In this document: positions 13,044 through 61,309 of the stretch, one piece after another
How positions within the stretch are numbered: position 1 is the stretch's first letter
Layout: each line of letters begins with the position of its first letter
Assembly: GCA_951406725.2 (NCBI GenBank)
Contig: OX597822.1
Span: 61,380,001-61,444,000, forward strand
Reading direction: 5' to 3'
Length of the DNA stretch: 64,000 nt
DNA from: Octopus vulgaris
Lineage: Eukaryota
Notes under the pieces: generated by a model
What the model saw: only the letters and a program-made list of their open reading frames with translations
Told to the model about the DNA's origin: nothing
The model's database searches: none
Position numbers and translations under genes: made by a program

Positions 13044-13103
13044 ATATAAATGTTTCTTGGTTTTGGGGTAACCTTCTAGGATGGCATTTAAAATATCATT
13101 GGC
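13044..13103 (-). CDS. PSMC3IP: HOP2 exon 8 (ANDILNAILEGYPKTKKHLY)
   Basis: AAG/GTAAGT boundaries, 60 nt; conserved AILEGYPK. Confidence 0.95.
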
Positions 13104-13748
13104 CTTCAATAAAGAAAGAAATACATTGGTCGATTTTCATTGATGGAAATGTTCTGGAAAAAGCAAAAAGCAGTTTCACACACATGTGCACAGCCACACA
13201 CAAGTGCTAAGTTGTTTTATATTGGATGTGGAGACACGAAACTTCCAATAACATCTGATTTTTTTTCTCAATAATATTGTTTAAATAATTGATTATTGAA
13301 GTTATGCTCCTAGTTAGTGTTTTGTGTGCAAGAGTTTAAATGTCTATCAATGATTGTGCATGTCTCTGTATACTTGCAATTATGAATAAGCTGCTGAGAG
13401 CGTTGCAAATATGAGACTAAATTGAATGCTTTGGTTGTGAATGCAGCGAATACAGGCCAGATGAATCTGCACAATTTATACAAAAGCAATGATTTTGCAA
13501 CTATTCAGATACAAGAGTGGAACACAGCACAGAGTTTAGGTATATAACAACAATAAAAGTTGCATTATATTGTGTATTGAAGCTGGAACGTAAGTAAATA
13601 TATATAACTGCAACTTTTATTTCTCATCTAATAAAGGGAAAATCAGCCCCATATTTGAACTTAAATTTGAGTACATTAAGAGAAGTACATACAATCACAA
13701 ATGCTTGTACATAACTTTCTTAGAAGGAAAAATCATGTGTGTGTTTGC

Positions 13749-13806
<58 letters not shown>

Positions 13807-13850
13807 TAGTACTTTGGTTCTTGAACAACTTTGATCACGAATAAATCGTG

Positions 13851-13893
<43 letters not shown>

Positions 13894-14138
13894 TTATGAG
13901 AGGTAATGGTGTCACTGAGGCCCAAAGGTGTCAGGTAATGCTGAATAAGTGCTATAGATAGACCATAGTTAAGTTCCAGGTTTGGTGATTATGCGAATAA
14001 GGGGTTCAATGTTGGTCATATGTCAGCGTGTGTATATAAAAATTTTTTTTTTCATAATGAGATAAAAAACCAAGGCTACAGCCTTGTTTTTTTTTTATTT
14101 CATTACGAAAAAAAATAGTGTATATATATATATATATA

Positions 14139-14782
14139 TACAATTTAAAAATAGGATAAAATCTTCATAAGAATTTATTAAGTAGTTAGCGTGAAAAACC
14201 TCATAAGAGAAAAAATCCATCAATTTTTTCACTTAAATATATTTATTTATATCATATAAAGGGCATTATTACACATAAATGCCACACACTAGGAGGGACT
14301 CTTAAAGTCAAAACTACTAAAATAAACATATCGTACCAAACCAACTCTTGAAGCAAGTCATTTAAAAACAGAATTCAGCTGCATATCACACTGTGATTTC
14401 GTAATCAGTGCAGTGGTATGCACTTTTCACTCCTCAGTGCAAGCATAATTCAAGATATATAATGAATGAACAAAAACAACATACCAGGCGAACAACTATC
14501 GTATCCAATGAAGCATGTAGAAATGTTTACCCCTTATACATATATGTAAATGGCAGGCTTTTTCGAATTGCATTTCGGTAACAATGTGCTTATTTGGAAT
14601 AAAAATTCAGTATTGAATATACTCCGGTTAAATTTACAATTTAAAAATAGGATAAAATCTTCATAAGAATTTATCAAGTAGTTAGCATGAAAAACCTCAT
14701 AAGAGAAAAAAATCCATCAATTTTTTCACTTAAATATATTTATTTATATTATATAGAGGGCATTATTACACATAAAAGCCAC
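14139..14782 (-). mobile_element. Non-coding partial-tandem element (496-bp unit + 147-bp repeat) carrying the hammerhead; Penelope pLTR/retrozyme-like
   Basis: Direct repeat 14139-14285 vs 14635-14782, abutting a (TA)n tract, with the hammerhead in the unique portion. Confidence 0.7.
14380..14441 (-). ncRNA. Type I hammerhead ribozyme motif, intact core
   Basis: Minus strand: UGCA-CUGAGGA-GUGA aa AGUGCA uaccac UGCACU ga UUAC-GAAA-UCACAGUGUGA-UA/UGCA. All three stems pair and all core nucleotides are present. Confidence 0.85.
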
Positions 14783-14954
14783 GGGGCTGAACATGAGACA
14801 TATTTATGAAGTAAGGTTCTTAACCAGAGTAGAAAGACTTATGTCCCGAGAGACACAGTGGATCAACTCCAGAATCTCATGGTTGCAAAACAATTCTTAA
14901 CCACATAGGCATGTCTGCACCTCCTCCCCTTCAAAAAAGAAAAAAGAAAGTTAC

Positions 14955-15008
14955 CATTCGTTTCCTCTTTTTCCATTCTTTAACACACTTCTGTCTTTCT
15001 TGGTAAAT
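14955..15008 (-). CDS. PSMC3IP: HOP2 exon 7 (IYQERQKCVKEWKKRKRM)
   Basis: TAG/GTAACT boundaries, 54 nt; conserved EWxKRKRM. Confidence 0.95.
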
Positions 15009-34088: not shown

Positions 34089-35100
34089 ACCCTTTGGCAG
34101 TAATTACAGCTTGAATTCTACGAGGTATGGGTCGTACAAAGTTTGAATTGTTTCCAGAGGAATTTATGTCCATTTTGTCTCCAGTTCTTGTAGTGGTGAT
34201 GGTGGAGGATATCGACTCCTTACTTGTTTTTCTAAGATGCACCATAAATGTTCAATAATATCGAGATCTGGGGACTGTAGTGGCCAGATAAGATGTTCAA
34301 CTTTACTAGAATGTTCCTCGTGCCATTCAGTAACAAATTTAGCTGCATGAATTGGTACATTATTATCCTGAAAGATTGCTTTTCCCTCCGGAAACAGTTC
34401 TGCAACAATAGGATGAATTTTATCAAATAAAATTCTTAAATAGTCTTGACTATTAATTCTGCCACGAAGGGAAACCATTGGGCCGGCGGATTTCCAAGAT
34501 ATAGTCCCCTAGATAATCACAGATCCTCCTCCATGTTTAACAGTTGGAAGAAGGCAGTCTGGGTCAAATGCTTCTATTGGCTGTCTCCACACATATACTC
34601 GGCCGGTGGTCGGAAATAAGGTAAAGGATGACTCGTCCGAGAAAATAACATTCTTCCACTATTCTAGGGACCAATTCTATAGGTTTTTGCTCCACTCTAA
34701 ACGCTTTGCAACGTTTGTTTTTGAAAGTAGTGTTTTTCTGATTGTAGCCCTCCCGTGAAATCCGGCTTTGTGTAGCTCCCGGCGAATAGTTTTTGTGGAA
34801 ACTGGGTTCTCGAGGTGGTCATTGAGCTCAGCAGTAATTTTGGGAGCTGTACTTTTGTGATCCTTTCTAACAATTCGCGTAAGAGTCCGACGGTGCCTAT
34901 TGAAAATTTTGGTTTTCTTCTGGAGTTTTGTTTCGACGAGGAGGCTTTTCCCTCTTTCTCAAAGGCTATCATTACTTTTGAGACAGTACTTCTTAATACA
35001 CCAAATATTTCGGCTGTTTTCGTTACGTTAGCGCCTGCCATACGAGCACCAACATTTGACCTCTGATAGATCTGTCATTTTAGTGAATTTTAATTACCTT
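34089..35100 (-). mobile_element. Decayed Tc1 (DD34E) transposase
   Basis: HTH (TKTAEIFGVLRSTVSKV), FQDNN..H, WPxQSPDLxIIE; frameshifted. Confidence 0.85.
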
Positions 35101-39302: not shown

Positions 39303-42191
39303 TCATGTAAAGAGTTCAGGCCACTTGAGGTCCAGGGAGGCTTTGAACAAAGCGGTCGTCGGCATCTTCACCATCTCGTCTGGCAGCTTGTTCCACGGAT
39401 CCGCAACCCGGACGGAGAAAGCTCCTCTCCTTCGATTGAGATGAAATCGTCGCAGGTAGAGCTTTTCGGAATGACCCCGCAGCCGACGCTCCGGAGCAGG
39501 AGTGAAGAACAGCTCTTTCGAGAGGTTACACTTCCCGCTTATGATGTTGTGGGCGAGAATGAGATCACCACGGCGGCGGCGTTTTTCAAGAGAATAAAGG
39601 TCGAGCATCCTCAGCCTTTCTTCGTAGGACAAATTTTTGAGACCATGAACCATGCGGGTAGCCAGCCTCTGGACTCTTTCGAGGTGCTGTATGTCTTTGA
39701 GGAGATAAGGAGAAGAGGCTTGAATCCCATACTCCAATATGGGTCTCACCAGCGTGACATAGAGTGGCAGGAATATGGCTGCTGTGAGCATTCCGAATGA
39801 CCGTCGAATCAAGAACAGAATTCCGCGCGCTTTGTTGGCAGCATGGACGCACTGGGCCGAAGGCGAAAAGGAGGAAACCACCAAGATACCCAGGTCCTTT
39901 ACCTGATCGGTCCTCTCCAGCAGCAGACGACCCGGCTCGAAATCGAGTTGAGTTGCAGGAGTAGAGCCGACAGGCAGATGACAGCACATTGACACGTTCA
40001 GACTCAGGTCCCAATCGTTAGACCACTTCCAAATTTGGTGGAGGCATCGACGGAGATCCTCTATACTACCGCGAGGAGCGACCAGTTTGATATCGTCGGC
40101 AAATAGAAGGGTGTGTTGCGTGAGGTCGTCGGGCAAGTCATTTATGAAGACTAAGAACAACAAGGGCCCAAGCACTGAACCTTGAGGCACGCCACTGCTC
40201 GCACTGGAGACGCCGGACCGCGAACCATTAACTTGAACTTGGAAGGAGCGATCTGAGAGGAAGGCACCAACCCATCGTACAATATCCGGATGGAAACTAT
40301 ATGCTTGAAGCTTGACAAGTAGTAGGCGATGGTTTACCGAGTCAAAAGCTTTGGCAAAGTCCAATAAAACGATGTCAACAGCATCACTATCATCGAGAAT
40401 GCGCGTCACCAATTCTTCCATTACTAGTAAGTTGGTCAAGCATGATCTCTTCGGCACGAAGCCGTGTTGGGAATCAGTGATCGAGGCTGTGTTTAGGAGG
40501 TGGAGCATCATACTTTTCTTAAGGATGGTTTCGAACATCTTGCTGATTATTGATGTAAGGGAAACCGGTCGGTAGTTAAGCGGGTCTTCGCGGCTCCCTT
40601 TCTTGAAAATTGGGCAGATTATCGCTGTTCTCCAGTCTGCAGGTATAACACCCGTCGCCAATGACATATTGAATAGTCGTGTTAAGGGCTCGCAGATGAC
40701 CGGAGCCAACGCTTTGATAACCCGTGGGTGTATGCCGTCAGGGCCGTGACCCTTGTTGACATCGAGGCCTTGAATAACCCGTTTGACTTGGTCCCGCGTG
40801 ATGATCAATCGAAGCATTGGAGGTACCGATCTATCAAATGGAGGGGGTTCACGACCATCATCTTGTTTGAAAATAGTTGAAAAAGCCTCGGCAAATAATT
40901 GACTCTGTTGATAAGGGTCCTCAATCGATACGCCTGTTGAGTCTACCAACGTTGCAATCTGGTTGTTCAAGCGGGAATTCCGCTGGACATGGGCAAAGAA
41001 GGTTTTTGGATTGCTACTGGCATTTGCCGCGATTTTGTATTCATAACTGAAGCGTTCTTTCTTTTCAATTTTCACGGCTCGGTCTCGTTGAGTTTTGTAC
41101 ACCTCAAAAGCTGCAGTCGAATCCAAATTTTTGAATTCAGCCCAAGCAATATCTCTGAGTCGACGTTCTCGTTTAACCTTCTTCGTCACCCAGGGCTTGT
41201 GTTTCTTCCTCTTGGGAAGTCCAACGGGAACTGCCTGGTCAGTCAAACAGATTACATATGCTTTGAGGGATGACCATAGTTCGTCAACTGAGGACAACGT
41301 CATCAGGGAACGCCAGTCCAGTAGCGCGGAAGCCTCGGTTAGAATTTCAAGATTAATTGCAGAGAAGACTCTACGTGGCAGCGAAGTAATCGTGGGCGTG
41401 GAAAAAGTTGTGTGCATGACGAACTTCAGGACCGCATGATCACTCTTGGCAAGAGGGGCGCACACAGATACGTCTGACACTGATCTTGGATAGCGGGAGA
41501 ATACCAGATCTAGCATAGATGGCTGCTGCCCAGACCGATGCCTTGTCGGATATTCAACATGTTGCGATAGAAAACAATCTTCAGCCACGTCAAGAAGGGC
41601 CTGGCCGAAACGGGAAGATGTTGTACAAATTGATGCGGGCCAATTGATCGTGGGAGCGTTGAAGTCGCCTAGTACCAAGCAGTCATGCAAAGCTGAAACG
41701 AATCTTATCGCTTCGAGTAGATGAGCATCGTCCTGGGGGTCGGCTAGAGGCGGCCTGTAGACAGCCAACACGGGCAGGCAAAACTCAGATAGGCTCAGCT
41801 TGCAATAGACGGCATCGAATTTGGTTGTAGGTTGAGCATTTGTGGGTAGAATACCACAGGACGGTTTGTGCTCAGACTTAACATACACAGCAACACCTCC
41901 ACCTCGCCTTTTTCCTCTGTCACATCTGAAAAGGACGTAGCCCTGCAGGTGGATCTCTGAGTCCTTTACTACTGGAGTCAGCCAAGTCTCGGTGATAGCT
42001 ATCACATCAGGGGAGTCGCGTAGGGCCAGTGTAAATAGTTCACTGAACTTTGGGAATAAGGAGCACGAGTTGGTGTAGACGATGCTGAGCTGTGAAGTCT
42101 GAGGGGCGGGAGTTGGGGAACAAGCAGAATAAAGGGCATCAGAGATAGCATCGTTGACGGGGGTATCAACTTCACTTCGATTTGCCCTCAC
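39303..42191 (-). CDS. LINE ORF2: APE endonuclease + reverse transcriptase, 962 uninterrupted codons
   Basis: ITETWL, GDFN and SDH (APE); GPDG, NYRPVSLTS, DFAKAFDSV, GVPQGSVLGP, FADD (RT); CR1-type C-terminus LERVQR/YEERL/RGHS. Confidence 0.95.
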   Translation of the reverse strand: MRANRSEVDTPVNDAISDALYSACSPTPAPQTSQLSIVYTNSCSLFPKFSELFTLALRDSPDVIAITETWLTPVVKDSEIHLQGYVLFRCDRGKRRGGGVAVYVKSEHKPSCGILPTNAQPTTKFDAVYCKLSLSEFCLPVLAVYRPPLADPQDDAHLLEAIRFVSALHDCLVLGDFNAPTINWPASICTTSSRFGQALLDVAEDCFLSQHVEYPTRHRSGQQPSMLDLVFSRYPRSVSDVSVCAPLAKSDHAVLKFVMHTTFSTPTITSLPRRVFSAINLEILTEASALLDWRSLMTLSSVDELWSSLKAYVICLTDQAVPVGLPKRKKHKPWVTKKVKRERRLRDIAWAEFKNLDSTAAFEVYKTQRDRAVKIEKKERFSYEYKIAANASSNPKTFFAHVQRNSRLNNQIATLVDSTGVSIEDPYQQSQLFAEAFSTIFKQDDGREPPPFDRSVPPMLRLIITRDQVKRVIQGLDVNKGHGPDGIHPRVIKALAPVICEPLTRLFNMSLATGVIPADWRTAIICPIFKKGSREDPLNYRPVSLTSIISKMFETILKKSMMLHLLNTASITDSQHGFVPKRSCLTNLLVMEELVTRILDDSDAVDIVLLDFAKAFDSVNHRLLLVKLQAYSFHPDIVRWVGAFLSDRSFQVQVNGSRSGVSSASSGVPQGSVLGPLLFLVFINDLPDDLTQHTLLFADDIKLVAPRGSIEDLRRCLHQIWKWSNDWDLSLNVSMCCHLPVGSTPATQLDFEPGRLLLERTDQVKDLGILVVSSFSPSAQCVHAANKARGILFLIRRSFGMLTAAIFLPLYVTLVRPILEYGIQASSPYLLKDIQHLERVQRLATRMVHGLKNLSYEERLRMLDLYSLEKRRRRGDLILAHNIISGKCNLSKELFFTPAPERRLRGHSEKLYLRRFHLNRRRGAFSVRVADPWNKLPDEMVKMPTTALFKASLDLKWPELFT

Positions 42192-42940
42192 ATCACTTTC
42201 CCTGTCAGCACTACAGCATGGGACCAGAGGTAGGACTTGATTATCTGTCCATCTTGGATTCGTAAACCCTTCTCTCCCATTTGTTTCCTCATCTTTAGCT
42301 CGGATATCAGGTTCCTCCGGCGAATTCTCTCTCTTCGTGAGTATTCCTCGCGAAAACCCATATTGGGGTCCTCCCAGGCATGCGTCTGAGCTCTGTTCAG
42401 AAAGACTGAAGCCTCCCGATCAGAAGAAAAGATTACCCTTATTGGGCGTGGTCTAGTATCTGCGGTTGGGTTCGCTTGGAATCTTCCTAGCCGAGCGACC
42501 TTAAGAACACTGACATTTTCGTTCACAGAGAACAATTTTCCAACCAAAACGGAAACAAAATTAATGTCATCTTTTAGGCGGTTTATGCCTGTATCACAGG
42601 TGGATTCAGCCTTGCCATATATTATTGCCGATCTTGAGTGGGCAAAAAGTTCTCTACTATGAGCTGCGGTATTCGATTCTTCATTGGAGGATTTCGAAAG
42701 TGTGGTTTCATAGCCATCGGACTTATGTCGGCCTGTGGGGTCGATCGGAATGGATTTAGTGGTCATAATTTTCCCGCCTGGTTTGGAACTGAACTGCCTC
42801 TTCTTCGGTTTGGGGGAGCACCACTCCCCAGATGAACCCACATCGAGATCGTTCAGAATTGGTTGAGCAATGGCATTAATGGGAAGGACAAGTGAAGGAG
42901 AATCCAAACAGATTTTATCGTGATCAGGTTTCATAGCCAA
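42188..42940 (-). CDS. LINE ORF1 (nucleic-acid-binding; frame open from ~43087)
   Basis: Directly upstream of ORF2; RLG...RPRPIRVIF motif typical of CR1/L2 ORF1. Confidence 0.8.
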   Translation of the reverse strand: MAMKPDHDKICLDSPSLVLPINAIAQPILNDLDVGSSGEWCSPKPKKRQFSSKPGGKIMTTKSIPIDPTGRHKSDGYETTLSKSSNEESNTAAHSRELFAHSRSAIIYGKAESTCDTGINRLKDDINFVSVLVGKLFSVNENVSVLKVARLGRFQANPTADTRPRPIRVIFSSDREASVFLNRAQTHAWEDPNMGFREEYSRRERIRRRNLISELKMRKQMGEKGLRIQDGQIIKSYLWSHAVVLTGKVM

Positions 42941-46608: not shown

Positions 46609-47212
46609 ACGTGCATGTGTGTATGTGTATAACACCAAATAAATAAAAAAGAAGTATAATTTGCATGAATGTGATGCAATACCCACCCAGAATTTACAGA
46701 ATATGAACAACTGAACTAGATAAATACTCAGTGCAAGAGGTACAATGGTTAAGAAAAAAGAAGTTCCATTGAAAAATTCGAGTAAAAAAAAGAAGCATAA
46801 TCCTAATAAAGAACCAAAATTTCATGAAATTATAATCAACAAATGCTAAATCAGTTAATCAATCAACGTCCTATTAGGAATCTGTATACAGTTTTGCGTA
46901 ATTAACTAAGTATATTTATATTTAAAAAATCGTAATGAACCAACTCAATAATAGCATACCTTCACAACCACAATCATAATAATTTCTAATTATCACGTAA
47001 AAATACATAACTGCAAAATAATTCATAATTCCTCATCAATAAACTTGATATTTCTATCTTATAAGATTGTCTTTACCTTTATATTTTTAAATTCATTTCT
47101 CTTATATCCATATACTGAAGTACAAGAAATATATCTATTATAAAAAAAAATCTTATAATTACTATGAAAATAAAATAATAATTCTTTAAAAAAATGAAAT
47201 TAGGAACTGCCC

Positions 47213-47251
<39 letters not shown>

Positions 47252-47252
<1 letters not shown>

Positions 47253-49124
47253 TCTTTTGTTTATCCTTAATACCTCTCTCAAAGCTGCTCAATGACGCGC
47301 AGTACGGGTATAAAATGTTTGATAAAAATATAAATCATCTCGTTTACATGGATGATTTAAAGCTTTTTGCAAAAAATGATCAACAACTCAAGGGCTTACT
47401 AGCGATAGTCAAACAATTCAGTGACGACATCAGAATGCAATTCGGCCTCGATAAATGTGAAAAGGCTACCTTTATCAAAGGAAAAATGACAGAAACATCT
47501 AACGTTAACCTTGACCAACAGAATGTCATAAAAGAACTAGACCCAGCGGAGAGCTACAAGTACCTAGGGGTAATTGAAGGGAACGGAATAAGGCATTCAG
47601 AGATGAAGGAAAGGATCAGGAGAGAATGCTATCGAAGAGTGAGAGCAATACTCAAGACAGAGCTGAATGCAAGAAACAGGATCGAAGCAATCAATGCATT
47701 AGCTATACCAGTCGTGACTTACAGTTTCAATATTGTTAACTGGTCAATTACTGAAATATGTCAGCTCGACAGAAAAATAAGGAAACTGTTGACAATGCAT
47801 AGAATGCACCACCCTAAGGCAGATACAGAACGACTCTATCTGCCAAGAAAAGAGGGAGGCCGTGGTCTTTTGCAACTGGCAATAACAATGAAGATTGCTA
47901 CAATTGGCCTAGACACCTACCTGAAAAACTCTGAGGACTGGATGTTAAAACTTGTCTCAAAACATGAAAACAAGAAAGCATCATACTCAGTCACAAAACA
48001 GGCAAAGGAATATCTAAGTGAATTCCGAATACAACCAATTTCGGAATTAGAGATAGACATACAAGAAACAAGCACAGAAAAAGCTAGGCGCATGAAAACC
48101 CGTGCCAAAACTGCGGCCTTAGATATTCTGAATAATAAATGGCAAGAAAAACCTCTCTATGGCAAATACCCAAAGAGAGCGAACAATGCAGATATCGACA
48201 AAGCCCTGACCCATCAATGGCTAATGGCCTCTGGCTTAAAATCTGAAACAGAGGGGTTTATCATAGCAGCTCAAGATCAATGCCTACCAACAAGAAACTA
48301 CCAGGCCAACATATTAAAGATCAGAAGCAGTCCAACGTGTCGTGTATGCAAGCAACAAAATGAAACCATTGACCATGTGGTCTCCAAGTGCAGTCTTCTA
48401 GCGCCTACAGAGTATCTCAACAGGCACGATAGAGCTGCACAATATATTCACTGGGTAATCTGTAAAAACCTGGATTTGCCCCATGAAAAAAACTGGTGGG
48501 AACACAAACCACCCCCAGTGCTTGAAAATGACCACATATCACTCCTCTGGAACTTCACCATTCAAACTGACAGGAAGATAGATGCAAATAGGCCAGACAT
48601 CATATTGAAAGACTTCAAACAAAGAACATGCCTCCTCATTGATATGACTGTCCCAATCGATATAAGCGTATCTGTCAGGACCTACCAAAAACTGAGCAAA
48701 TATAAAGATCTTGAAATAGAAATCAGCAAAATGTGGAAGCTGAAGACTAAAACAATACCTGTTGTCATAGGTGCCCTGGGAATGATAGCAAAAGGGGCTG
48801 ATAGCTACCTAACTCAGATACCAGGAAACCCAAAAATGGCAGAAGTTCAAAAGATAGTGCTCATGGGAACTGCTCATATCCTACGCAAAATACTCTCTAT
48901 GTAACCTCAAGGTTTAAAACAACCATAATTTTCGGTTTAAAAAAAAAAAAAAAAAAAAAAAAACTTTTTTATTTAGACATTCATTAGTACAACATCCCCA
49001 CCCGCCAAATATATGGCACACTAGGCATAACAACAACATGAACTTCCAACCCTGTTGTCTCTTGAGGTCTCTGGGTGAGACTTGGAGCCAACTTGTACAA
49101 ATATAAAGCAAAAGTCAAACATAG
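47252..49124 (+). mobile_element. 5'-truncated R4/Dong-clade non-LTR retrotransposon inserted in (TAA)n
   Basis: ORF 47315-48904 has YMDD RT, CCHC knuckle (CRVC...H...C), RHD, and REL endonuclease (RPD..LID..K..KY); (TAA)n on both sides. Confidence 0.9.
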
Positions 49125-55339: not shown

Positions 55340-56082
55340 GAAATAGAAAGATGAATAATCTTGTTGCAGATTAATCAAAAGTTTTACCGATACCTTGGTA
55401 GCAAAAATCACAGCAGAAGACAGCACGGTTGGAGGTACAACCATAAGGTGTTGCAACCGTCGTTGGTGCGGATAATTGAATTTTAATATTATTAGTGAAT
55501 TGAAGAAATGGAGTTGAACGAAGATTGAACGGAAATCGTTTTATTGCATTCTACACGTGTTTCGAAATGCACAATTTACCAAATTCCGATTGAATAAGGA
55601 GACCATATTGTGTCTTTCTCTTCGGGAAGAAATAGGAAATCCGTTGGAAAAAACAAAAACAGAACAGAGGCGGAGCAAAACAAATCGAACGAGGCTCCTA
55701 AGAGCTGATGGGCTCTTAGGAGCCTCGTTCGATTTGTTTTGCTCCGCCTCTGTTCTGTTTTTGTTTTCTCCAACGGATTTCCTATTTCTTCCTGAAGAGA
55801 AAGACACAATATGGTCTCCTTATTCAATCGGAATTTGGTAAATTGTGCCTTTCGAAACACGTGTAGAATGCAATAAAACGATTTCCGTTCAATCTTCGTT
55901 CAACTCCATTTCTTCAATTCACTAATAATATTAAAATTCAATTATCCGCACCAACGCACGGTTGCAACACCTTATGGTTGTACCTCCAACCGTGCTGTCT
56001 TCTGCTGTGATTTTTGCTACCAAGGTATCGGTAAAACTTTTGATTAATCTGCAACAAGATTATTCATCTTTCTATTTCACAA
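55336..56082. mobile_element. ~747-bp near-perfect palindrome in (TA)n with hammerhead motifs (55789-55868 +, core intact; 55549-55628 -, core CCGAAGA)
   Basis: Arms of ~370 bp, 6-nt loop at 55706-55711; UUC-CUGAAGA-GAAAGACACAAU...AUUGUGCCUUUC-GAAA-CACGUG-UA/GAA followed by AATAAA. Confidence 0.85.
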
Positions 56083-56713: not shown

Positions 56714-57371
56714 TATAAATAATTTACAAGATAAGGGCAGAAGAAATATTCTAATGCCAAATATGCCGAAACAAAAAATTGTCGATAACCATTATAATTT
56801 ATGCGTTTCGAAACAAACCGATAGAAATCTCTAAAAAATTCGTTATTACCGTATTGGTCCAATTTCGGGGTTAATTCATAAGAAAATTTCCCCTCTTCAG
56901 TGGCAAATACGCGAGATATAAGCGAAATACTTACTCATACCCATGGAAAAAGCAAGTACTAAGTCCCGAGCAGAACTAAGTACCCCAAATATATCCAAAA
57001 TAGAAAAATCTTCGGCACAACTAAGTACCCCAAATATATCCAAAATAGAAAAACCTTCGGCACATCTGTGCCGAAGGTTTTTCTATTTTGGATATATTTG
57101 GGGTACTTAGTTCTGCTCGGGACTTAGTACTTGCTTTTTCCATGGGTATGAGTAAGTATTTCGCTTATATCTCGCGTATTTGCCGCTGAAGAGGGAAATT
57201 TTCTTATGAATTAACCCCGAAATTGGACCAATACGGTAATAACGAATTTTTTAGAGATTTCTATCGGATTGTTTCGAGACGCATAAATTATAATGGTTAT
57301 CGACAATTTTTTGTTTCGGCACATTTGGCATTAGAATTTTTTTTCTGCCCTTAACTTGTAAATTATTTATA
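56714..57371. mobile_element. ~660-bp palindrome with hammerhead motifs (57180-57239 +, intact; 56846-56906 -)
   Basis: Centre at 57065-57066; 45-bp tandem duplication in the left arm; UUGCCG-CUGAAGA-GGG...CCC-GAAA-UUGGACCAA-UA/CGGUAA. Confidence 0.85.
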
Positions 57372-59716: not shown

Positions 59717-60520
59717 AGGGGTTGGACAAAATAACGGAAACACCTTAAAATTTCAAACAAATTTATTTTAATATGGGGTAGGACCACCTTTGGCAGTAAT
59801 TACAGCTTGAATTCTACGAGGTATGTACCTGTACAAAGTTTGAATTGTTTCCAAATTTTTTGTCCATTCTTCAGCTAAAACAGTCTCCAGTTCTTGTAGC
59901 GATGATGCTAGAGGATATCGACTCCTTACTTGTTTTTCTAAAATGCTCCATAAACGTTCAATAATATTGAGATCTGGGGACTGTGGTGGCCAGATAAGAT
60001 ATTCAACTTTACTAGAATGTTCCTCATGCCATTCAGTAACAAATTTAGCTGCATGAATTGGTACATTATTATCCTGAAAGATTGCTTTTCCCTCAGGAAA
60101 TAGTTCCGCAACCATAGGATGAATTTGACCAGATAAAATGCTTAGATAGTCTTGACTATTAATTCTATCATGAAGGGAAACCATTGGGCAGGAAGACTTC
60201 CAGGATATAGCTCTCTAGATCATCACAGATCCTCCTCCATGTTTAACAGTTGGAAGAAGACAGTCTGGATCAACTTCTTCTTTTGGCTGTCTCCACACAT
60301 ACTCGGCCGGTGGTGGGAAATAAGGGAAAGGATGACTCGTCCGAGAAAATAACATTCTTCCACTGCCCTAGGGACCAATTCTGTAGGTTTTTATTCCATT
60401 CTAAACGCTTTGCAGCGTTTGTTTTTGAAAGTAGTAGTTTTCTGATTGCAGCCCACCCGTGAAATCCGGCTTTGTACAGCTCCCGGTGAACAGTTTTTGT
60501 GGCAACTGGCTTGAGGTGTT
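59717..60520 (-). mobile_element. Second, 5'-truncated copy of the same Tc1 family with 3' TIR
   Basis: FQDNNVPIH...WPPQSPDLNIIE...VITAKGGPTPY; high similarity to 34089-34810. Confidence 0.85.
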
Positions 60521-61309
60521 CAGTAAACTCTGCAGTATGCTAAATGTGAAAACTGATATAAGATATTCCACATTAAGGTTTTTATTGTAGCGAAGTAATG
60601 TAATAAGTATATGGAGAAGTGTGATTTCAGCCAAATGTAAAGATTTTATGAGAAAAATAAATTTGGAAACTTATTTTATCTTCTTGGCTAGTTTTTTGAC
60701 TTGTTTTAGCTGCTTGGTCCGGAAATTTCTCTGTAACCATATTGTTTCGATTTCAACCCCATTGCGCAGCATCTTGGTTAACTATTTTCTACTATAGGTC
60801 GGGGCTGGTCAATGCCTTGTAGGGGAATTCAGTGGACGGAAACTGTTTGGAAGCGGCAAGGTGGCAGAAACGTTAGCATGTCGGGCGAAATGCTTAGCGG
60901 TATTTCGACTGCGTTACGTTCTGAGTTCAAATTCTGCCGAGGTCGTCTTTGCCTTTCATCCTTTCGGGGTTGATAAATTAAGTACCAGTCACGCACTGGG
61001 GTTGATATAATCGACTTAATCCGTTTGTCTGTCCTTGTTTGTCCCTTCTGTGTTTAGCTCCTTGTGGGTAGTAAAGAAATAGGTATGTCGTCTGCCGCTA
61101 CGTTCTGAGTTCAAATTCCGCCGAGGTTGACTTAGTCTTTCATAATGTTGGGGTCGATTAAATAAGTACCAGTTACGCACTGGGGTCGATGTAATCGATT
61201 TAATCCCTTTGTTTGTCCATGTTTGTCCCCTCTATGTTTAGCCCCTTGTGAGCAATAAAGAAATAGAAAACTGTGTGGAAGCCTGTCGTATATATATGTA
61301 TATATACTC

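Follow-up and report, generated by a model that had tools for sequence, protein, structure and literature searches.

A hammerhead motif in intron 7 of octopus HOP2 is the predicted ribozyme of a dispersed, retrozyme-like repeat

In our judgement, the hammerhead motif in intron 7 of the Octopus vulgaris meiotic gene HOP2 quite probably serves as the ribozyme of a 497-bp repeat that is dispersed in the genome. This repeat is likely a non-LTR retrozyme moved by Penelope-like elements, and its copy in HOP2 is likely a passenger that does not regulate its host. The fold of the motif, the repeat family, the anatomy of its insertions and the intact host gene are direct observations. An earlier note on this DNA did not recognise that the motif is the ribozyme of a dispersed repeat family. 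All positions are those of the window, the 64,000-nt stretch of contig OX597822.1 that was analysed (Table 1).

Table 1. Features of HOP2 and of the repeat copy in its intron 7, with positions in the window
Feature	Position	Strand	Remarks
HOP2 (PSMC3IP) coding span	32120-11896	minus	nine GT-AG exons, intact 211-aa frame
HOP2 coding exon 7	14955..15008	minus	54 nt
HOP2 intron 7	13104..14954	minus	1851 nt, GT-AG
HOP2 coding exon 8	13044..13103	minus	60 nt
Inserted non-coding repeat, predicted non-LTR retrozyme	14141..14782	minus	~1.3 units, 29% GC
Partial first unit (upstream 146-bp direct repeat)	14636..14782	minus	
Type I hammerhead, predicted	14451-14371	minus	stems I (with bulged U and 2x2 loop) and II extended; stem III
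Stem I, proximal	14441-14438 with 14383-14380	minus	
Stem I, full length	out to 14451/14371	minus	via bulged U and 2x2 loop
Core CUGAGGA	14437-14431	minus	
Stem II	14430-14427 with 14404-14401	minus	then 2x2 loop and 6-bp hairpin
Core GAAA	14400-14397	minus	
Stem III	14396-14393 with 14389-14386	minus	plus A15.1-U16.1; 3-nt loop
AUA site, predicted cut	14384/14383	minus	
U1.7	14377	minus	predicted tertiary partner of loop 2 3' A (14405)
Rival 7-bp helix	14441-14435 with 14393-14387	minus	would bury C3-U4-G5 and disrupt stems I and III
Downstream 146-bp direct repeat (element 3' end)	14140..14285	minus	
(TA)n tract at element 3' end	14121..14140		likely integration target

The spliced 211-aa product of HOP2 is identical to P0036, a protein with the source name Octopus vulgaris whose cluster mates are named HOP2. 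The PF07106 profile matches two of the minus-strand exons, and a search with PF18517 did not find the short HOP2 exons. Two exons (20785-20715 and 18892-18815, minus strand) seem to match a single exon of the human gene, which has eight; this explains why the intron with the hammerhead is number 7. The motif starts 513 nt past the exon 7 donor, in the sense orientation of HOP2, and its predicted cut lies 1280 nt ahead of the 3' splice site of the intron. The earlier placement in HOP2, in intron number 7, sense and about 510 nt from the donor, was therefore borne out by the nine-exon model. Read contigs from 4 of 24 listed runs, none of which is recorded as RNA, were compared. One run, X11, which is only guessed to be RNA, contained a 468-nt contig that lies on exon 7 only and continues for 249 and 162 letters past the two splice sites; this contig is consistent with spliced HOP2 mRNA, and we infer that it includes the exon 7-8 join. 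X11 contig depth is low around the cut site, which, coming from a single run of contigs, carries no weight.

The motif in the intron has the CUGANGA, GAAA and NUH elements of a hammerhead and three helices, with stem I open-ended. A strict hammerhead descriptor matched the window once and none of 200 dinucleotide shuffles, and a looser descriptor matched it twice and none of 100 shuffles. Fold and shuffle test confirm the earlier description of a complete minus-strand hammerhead with a long stem II and a cut between 14384 and 14383. The limits proposed for it, 14380..14441, enclosed a real core and real helices but stopped short in stem I, which extends to 14451/14371. U1.7 and the 3' A of loop 2 (14377 and 14405) are invariant in 30 of 30 paralogues; they correspond to a loop 1-loop 2 tertiary pair described in the available part of PMC11875169, and judging from these bases the contact would also form in the HOP2 copy. 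Rfam scans of the whole window and of positions 13900-15000 returned no hammerhead, either at the gathering score or at E values up to 10. The long stem II may account for this miss, which would be a limit of the library and not a catalytic feature. Rfam matches to snoRNAs and miRNAs in the window were far under their gathering scores and were dismissed as chance.

The hammerhead lies between two direct repeats of 146 bp that are spaced 496-497 nt apart and differ from each other by 5 substitutions and 1 indel (3-4% divergence). The copy is 5'-truncated at 14782, relative to a monomer of 496-497 bp, and it carries one ribozyme only and therefore could not release a monomer by itself. The 497-nt unit has 31% GC and no long reading frame and, folded as a circle, is self-paired (z of -3.3 against 40 shuffles). 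No target-site duplication was seen around the HOP2 copy. DNA contigs of two related organisms (B and C) extend from unique flanking sequence into 30 letters of the element, a reach one letter under the bridging threshold applied; compared with the window, 7-8 of about 840 sites are changed in them, a difference of about 1% in the flank. From this comparison the element was likely already in place when these close relatives separated, in agreement with the 3-4% divergence of the internal repeats; because the relatives differ by only about 1% in the flank, the shared junction is no sign of selection. The displayed contigs of another organism (D) stop short of the junction. No joint skipping the element was seen among the 15 joints displayed out of 21. 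Added up, contig depth on the element exceeds that on the flank by a factor of hundreds, a ratio that is not a copy number.

Searching the genome with a 346-bp query gave 2007 candidates, and among those listed 40 were full-length or near-full-length matches with 88-100% identity (window included); the hammerhead alone gave 615 candidates. A 19-nt core pattern had 132 exact matches genome-wide versus 0 for a reversed control, and 28 of the 30 core-pattern loci checked belong to the retrozyme-like family. A 33-nt stretch of the HOP2 ribozyme is found exactly at 10 places, 6 of them on contig C17, where the flanks of the copies show segmental duplication. Among the first 100 of the 132 core-pattern places there are two tandem copies with two ribozymes each, spaced 501 and 506 nt; the first ribozyme of one pair (L137) has a damaged stem III and that of the other (L136) a G12>A change. 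Neither a long tandem array nor a copy with two flawless ribozymes was seen among these 100 places. Seven loci (L110, L111, L120, L122, L127, L134 and L136) form a divergent subfamily whose identity to the HOP2 copy is about 75-78%. Its stem III is short and palindromic, as in dimer-acting hammerheads, and its distal stem I shows compensatory changes.

Some other arrangements were observed in the course of these searches. On contig C11 the core pattern occurs five times on a single strand with a spacing of about 18-25 kb (G000:C11:12736549-12820434), which suggests a large tandem segmental duplication. In one locus (L132:202-849, plus strand) two copies of the element form an inverted pair, and about 450 bp away lies an open frame that, we assume, resembles a BTB-domain exon; copies may thus be present on both strands in other genes too. 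Among 73 places scored with Rfam, RF00163 (Hammerhead_1) matched 6 others in the genome (L141-L146), which comprise at least three unrelated sequence types, three of the six having a very long stem II. The window itself contains a 1038-aa open frame (39306-42419, minus strand), which we take to resemble a LINE-type endonuclease/RT, and a 566-aa open frame (47204-48901, plus strand), which we take to be of RTE-type RT. Two broken frames on the minus strand (34167-35074 and 59771-60670) are presumably remnants of Tc1/mariner-like transposases. The stretch 55518-55899 is duplicated in inverted orientation, and each strand carries a near-identical frame, as is typical of an inverted repeat insertion.

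The ends of the insertions are informative about how the family moves. In a census of 51 distinct sites (omitting L005, L007, L009, L109, L114, L116, L119 and L133), the 3' end lies on a microsatellite at 46, an inverted piece is present at the 5' end at 20, and the copy is longer than one unit at 24; because the search for sites relied on similarity to the hammerhead region, very short copies are under-counted. The 5' ends are scattered, the 3' ends fall into clusters at two TA-rich spots of the unit, and at none of the 51 sites does the insertion end at the ribozyme cut site. The available part of PMC8557442 describes partial tandems, inverted copies at the 5' end and targeting of microsatellites for Penelope-like elements. 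The microsatellite 3' ends, inverted 5' pieces and over-unit copies therefore point to Penelope-type integration of a non-LTR retrozyme. Multimeric copies are expected from reverse transcription around circles, according to the part of PMC7761336 available; an uncut tandem precursor could also yield over-unit copies.

Frames of the Penelope GIY-YIG type are abundant in this genome (6136 and 15743 candidates; the longest open frame reaches 781 aa). No autonomous partner sharing the sequence of the unit was found among 61 Penelope or Rfam loci, barring adjacent or nested insertions, and no RT or GIY-YIG frame continues the unit in the loci examined; an autonomous Penelope element would have such an RT and GIY-YIG frame joined to the repeat. 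Upstream of the ribozyme, copies run into another unit or stop. Right behind a retrozyme copy on C17, a Penelope-type fragment is nested in (TA)n (L036:4930-6600, and likewise in L033 and L035), with an inverted RT piece followed by GIY-YIG and a 3' UTR, and with an unrelated 3' end of its own. The family of this nested fragment has 15743 candidates, the longest frames being 778 aa. In 4 of the 4 copies read, its 3' UTR has CCGAAGA in place of the hammerhead CUGANGA. The window has a second hammerhead-like motif (57182-57237, plus strand), with a weak stem III, within an inverted or tandem repeat. This repeat is about 88-90% identical to sequence in a Penelope-type GIY-YIG locus (L057) and is likely a pseudo-LTR of another family.

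Conservation of the fold was evaluated across paralogues. In 26 copies that include the subfamily of about 76% identity, 95% of helix cells are paired and 17 cells show double changes, compared with 5.2 after shuffling (none of 500 shuffles reached 17), a covariation signal that rests on 4 pairs and on the relatedness of the subfamily. The 30 closest distinct copies showed no covariation above shuffles because they are too alike. Alignment A2 omits 5 of the 30 pattern loci, two as chance matches (L109 and L116) and three as broken or locally duplicated (L117-L119). Variation is 2.3% at core positions and 7.0% at the remaining positions of the unit, among loci some of which had been chosen for their core. 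Since fold and tertiary pair are kept, the source elements of the family likely need the ribozyme. The core is intact in 20 of 32 paralogues, a count that drops the window copy and L016 (the same place as L006) and still contains the C17 segmental duplicates. It replaces a count of 59 of 80, which was biased upward because many of those loci had been selected on the core and duplicates had been removed only by identical rows.

The HOP2 copy itself appears to decay like an ordinary repeat, as judged from its substitutions, without clear extra constraint. It keeps 7 of 13 family CpGs (6 lost) versus an average of 9.4. Compared with the family majority it differs at 1 of 81 hammerhead sites and at 10 of 270 other sites; the hammerhead, 23% of the length, thus holds 1 of the 11 differences, which is not significant. 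In a look-alike-biased sample 0 of 13 differences fall inside the hammerhead, again not significant. The small number of changes leans weakly toward retention of the ribozyme.

Nearest-neighbour folding disfavoured the active structure. A rival helix is preferred by about 3.7 kcal/mol in most contexts tried, and proximal stem I and stem III have a pair probability of about 0.13, alike across 18-37 C; the model omits tertiary and metal-ion energy, and its stem III values are low for all copies. The rival helix is strongest in the subfamily with a long stem III, where median stem I pairing is 0.035 (22 variants), compared with 0.97 in variants with a short palindromic stem III (6 variants). Because the predicted ground state buries the core, cleavage of the monomer may be slow, and the model suggests slow cutting by the HOP2 copy. 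The earlier statement that the motif is able to fold as a monomer holds as a possibility but does not describe the predicted ground state, in which the rival helix is favoured. With cleavage rates of 0.1 and 0.8 per minute, reported for mussel and coral retrozymes in the available part of PMC7229834, and an assumed polymerase speed of 1-4 kb per minute, we estimated that 3-64% of HOP2 transcripts would be cut before exon 8 emerges. By this analogy with other retrozymes, some cutting of HOP2 pre-mRNA is chemically possible. Intronic hammerhead cleavage is reported to leave splicing largely intact in the portion of PMC2995048 available, which also relates, second-hand, that a hammerhead-cut intron was spliced efficiently and that a faster ribozyme aborted splicing.

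The family resembles the animal non-LTR retrozymes of mussel, coral and axolotl as described in the available parts of PMC7229834 (Cervera and de la Pena 2020) and 10.64898/2026.07.22.740005. These likewise have a type I hammerhead in a short, low-GC, non-coding unit, dispersed copies, a self-paired monomer and Penelope-like elements in the same genome; they occur as monomers and dimers, and the tandem pairs seen in the octopus each have one damaged ribozyme. The octopus unit of 497 nt is longer than the 170-400 nt of the first animal retrozymes described there; units of 51-972 bp, and derivation from Penelope pseudo-LTRs, are given in the available text of the preprint (10.64898/2026.07.22.740005). 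As far as these sources go, the octopus family also differs in that no long arrays were seen, in strong (TA)n targeting with two preferred 3' ends, in frequent inverted 5' pieces and in an extended stem II with an internal loop. Cephalopods do not figure in the available parts of these sources. According to the same preprint, in the part available, 42-44% of Xenopus retrozyme copies lie in introns, yet they are depleted for intron length; with over 40% of Xenopus copies overlapping introns, an intronic copy is ordinary.

Two further groups of hammerheads invite comparison. The pseudo-LTR hammerheads of Penelope elements (Neptune, Poseidon and Hydra; PMC8557442, available part) share the partial-tandem and inverted anatomy, the microsatellite targets and the 5' truncation; unlike them, the octopus unit has no frame attached, and it has a full stem III and loop-loop contact bases in place of a minimal motif. 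The amniote intronic hammerheads (RECK and others; PMC6155905) and the CPEB3 ribozyme (PMC10274809) are likewise self-cleaving, intronic and in sense orientation, with cleavage predicted for the octopus copy. In the accounts available, the RECK-type and CPEB3 ribozymes are conserved across large clades, whereas the octopus copy is a young decaying repeat with more than 100 paralogues and hence not a single-copy sequence like a domesticated intronic ribozyme of this type. CPEB3 provides a precedent for a real effect on a host gene (PMC10274809, available part). For cephalopods, 235 Rfam hammerhead matches are listed for the giant squid in the available part of PMC6962438. Neither an octopus retrozyme nor a HOP2 ribozyme was found in the portions of the literature searched, whose supplementary species lists could include a cephalopod.

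The closest competitor to a Penelope-mobilised retrozyme shares much of its evidence. The unit could be what is left of an autonomous Penelope-like element, either its solo pseudo-LTR or a remnant of its 3' end, with no circular intermediate, an interpretation that we consider unlikely. In the sources available, Penelope insertions are marked by partial tandems, by inverted pieces at the 5' end and by (TA)n targets; retrozymes are reported as pseudo-LTR derivatives in the available preprint text (10.64898/2026.07.22.740005), and a Penelope fragment is nested right behind the unit in a C17 segmental duplicate. Yet that nested family ends in unrelated 3' sequence, another unit or nothing lies upstream of the ribozyme, and no Penelope frame continues the unit, in a comparison of 61 loci out of thousands of candidates. 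The full stem III and contact bases also set the octopus unit apart from Penelope hammerheads, which are usually minimal as far as the available descriptions go. The notion that AT-rich intron DNA happens to resemble a hammerhead here by chance has next to no probability: the missing Rfam hammerhead and an active fold that is not of minimum energy would fit it, but 0 of 200 shuffles matched the descriptor, the helices are kept through compensatory changes, and the core varies less than the rest of the unit (again 2.3% versus 7.0%, with partial selection on the core).

The remaining alternatives assign a function to the HOP2 copy. A co-opted ribozyme would cut HOP2 pre-mRNA co-transcriptionally and tune germ-line splicing or output in the manner of CPEB3 or the amniote hammerheads, precedents that are documented in the available parts of PMC10274809 and PMC6155905. 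The sense orientation, the complete core with both tertiary-contact bases, the presence of only 1 of 11 differences from the majority inside the hammerhead, and a 5' junction that seems common to two related organisms agree with co-option, and the 1280 nt between the cut and the 3' splice site could give a fast ribozyme time to cut 23-64% of transcripts. We nevertheless judge co-option very unlikely. Cores are normally intact in this family (20 of 32), the repeat is present and decaying as a whole rather than as a ribozyme alone, the rival helix is predicted to dominate, and relatives about 1% apart in the flank would share the junction without selection; in addition, a hammerhead-cut intron was reportedly spliced efficiently, and splicing was aborted by a faster ribozyme (PMC2995048, available part). 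The earlier proposal that cleavage of HOP2 pre-mRNA modulates splicing or output therefore survives as to the chemistry of cutting, and family norm and decay leave HOP2-specific regulation unsupported. A more speculative variant, to which we give very little credence, is that a young retrozyme copy is in early domestication, its slowed ribozyme cutting a measurable share of HOP2 pre-mRNA in the gonads and setting the dose of a meiotic factor; under this variant the rival helix would have arisen in the subfamily of the HOP2 copy.

For the Penelope-mobilised retrozyme that we favour, the following cycle can be proposed. Tandem copies would be transcribed, hammerheads would cut out monomers, and the released monomers would circularise. 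A Penelope-type RT/GIY-YIG endonuclease would nick (TA)n DNA and prime on one of the two TA-rich spots of the RNA, and copying past the cut site, often more than once around, would give 5'-truncated copies of over one unit, many of them bearing an inverted 5' piece. The copy in HOP2 would at most nick some of the pre-mRNA, likely slowly on account of the rival helix, and exon tethering would likely let HOP2 splicing finish.

Were this copy to regulate HOP2, invertebrates would offer a rare example of a meiotic gene tuned by a mobile ribozyme, but the data do not lead to this conclusion. Repeats can be expected to place intact hammerheads on the sense strand of octopus introns. The octopus family is an addition to the known class of retrozymes and apparently undescribed. 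Its insertion ends, with 0 of 51 at the cut site, 24 copies longer than one unit and 3' ends at two TA-rich spots, make a clean genomic test of the copying of circular RNA by Penelope enzymes.
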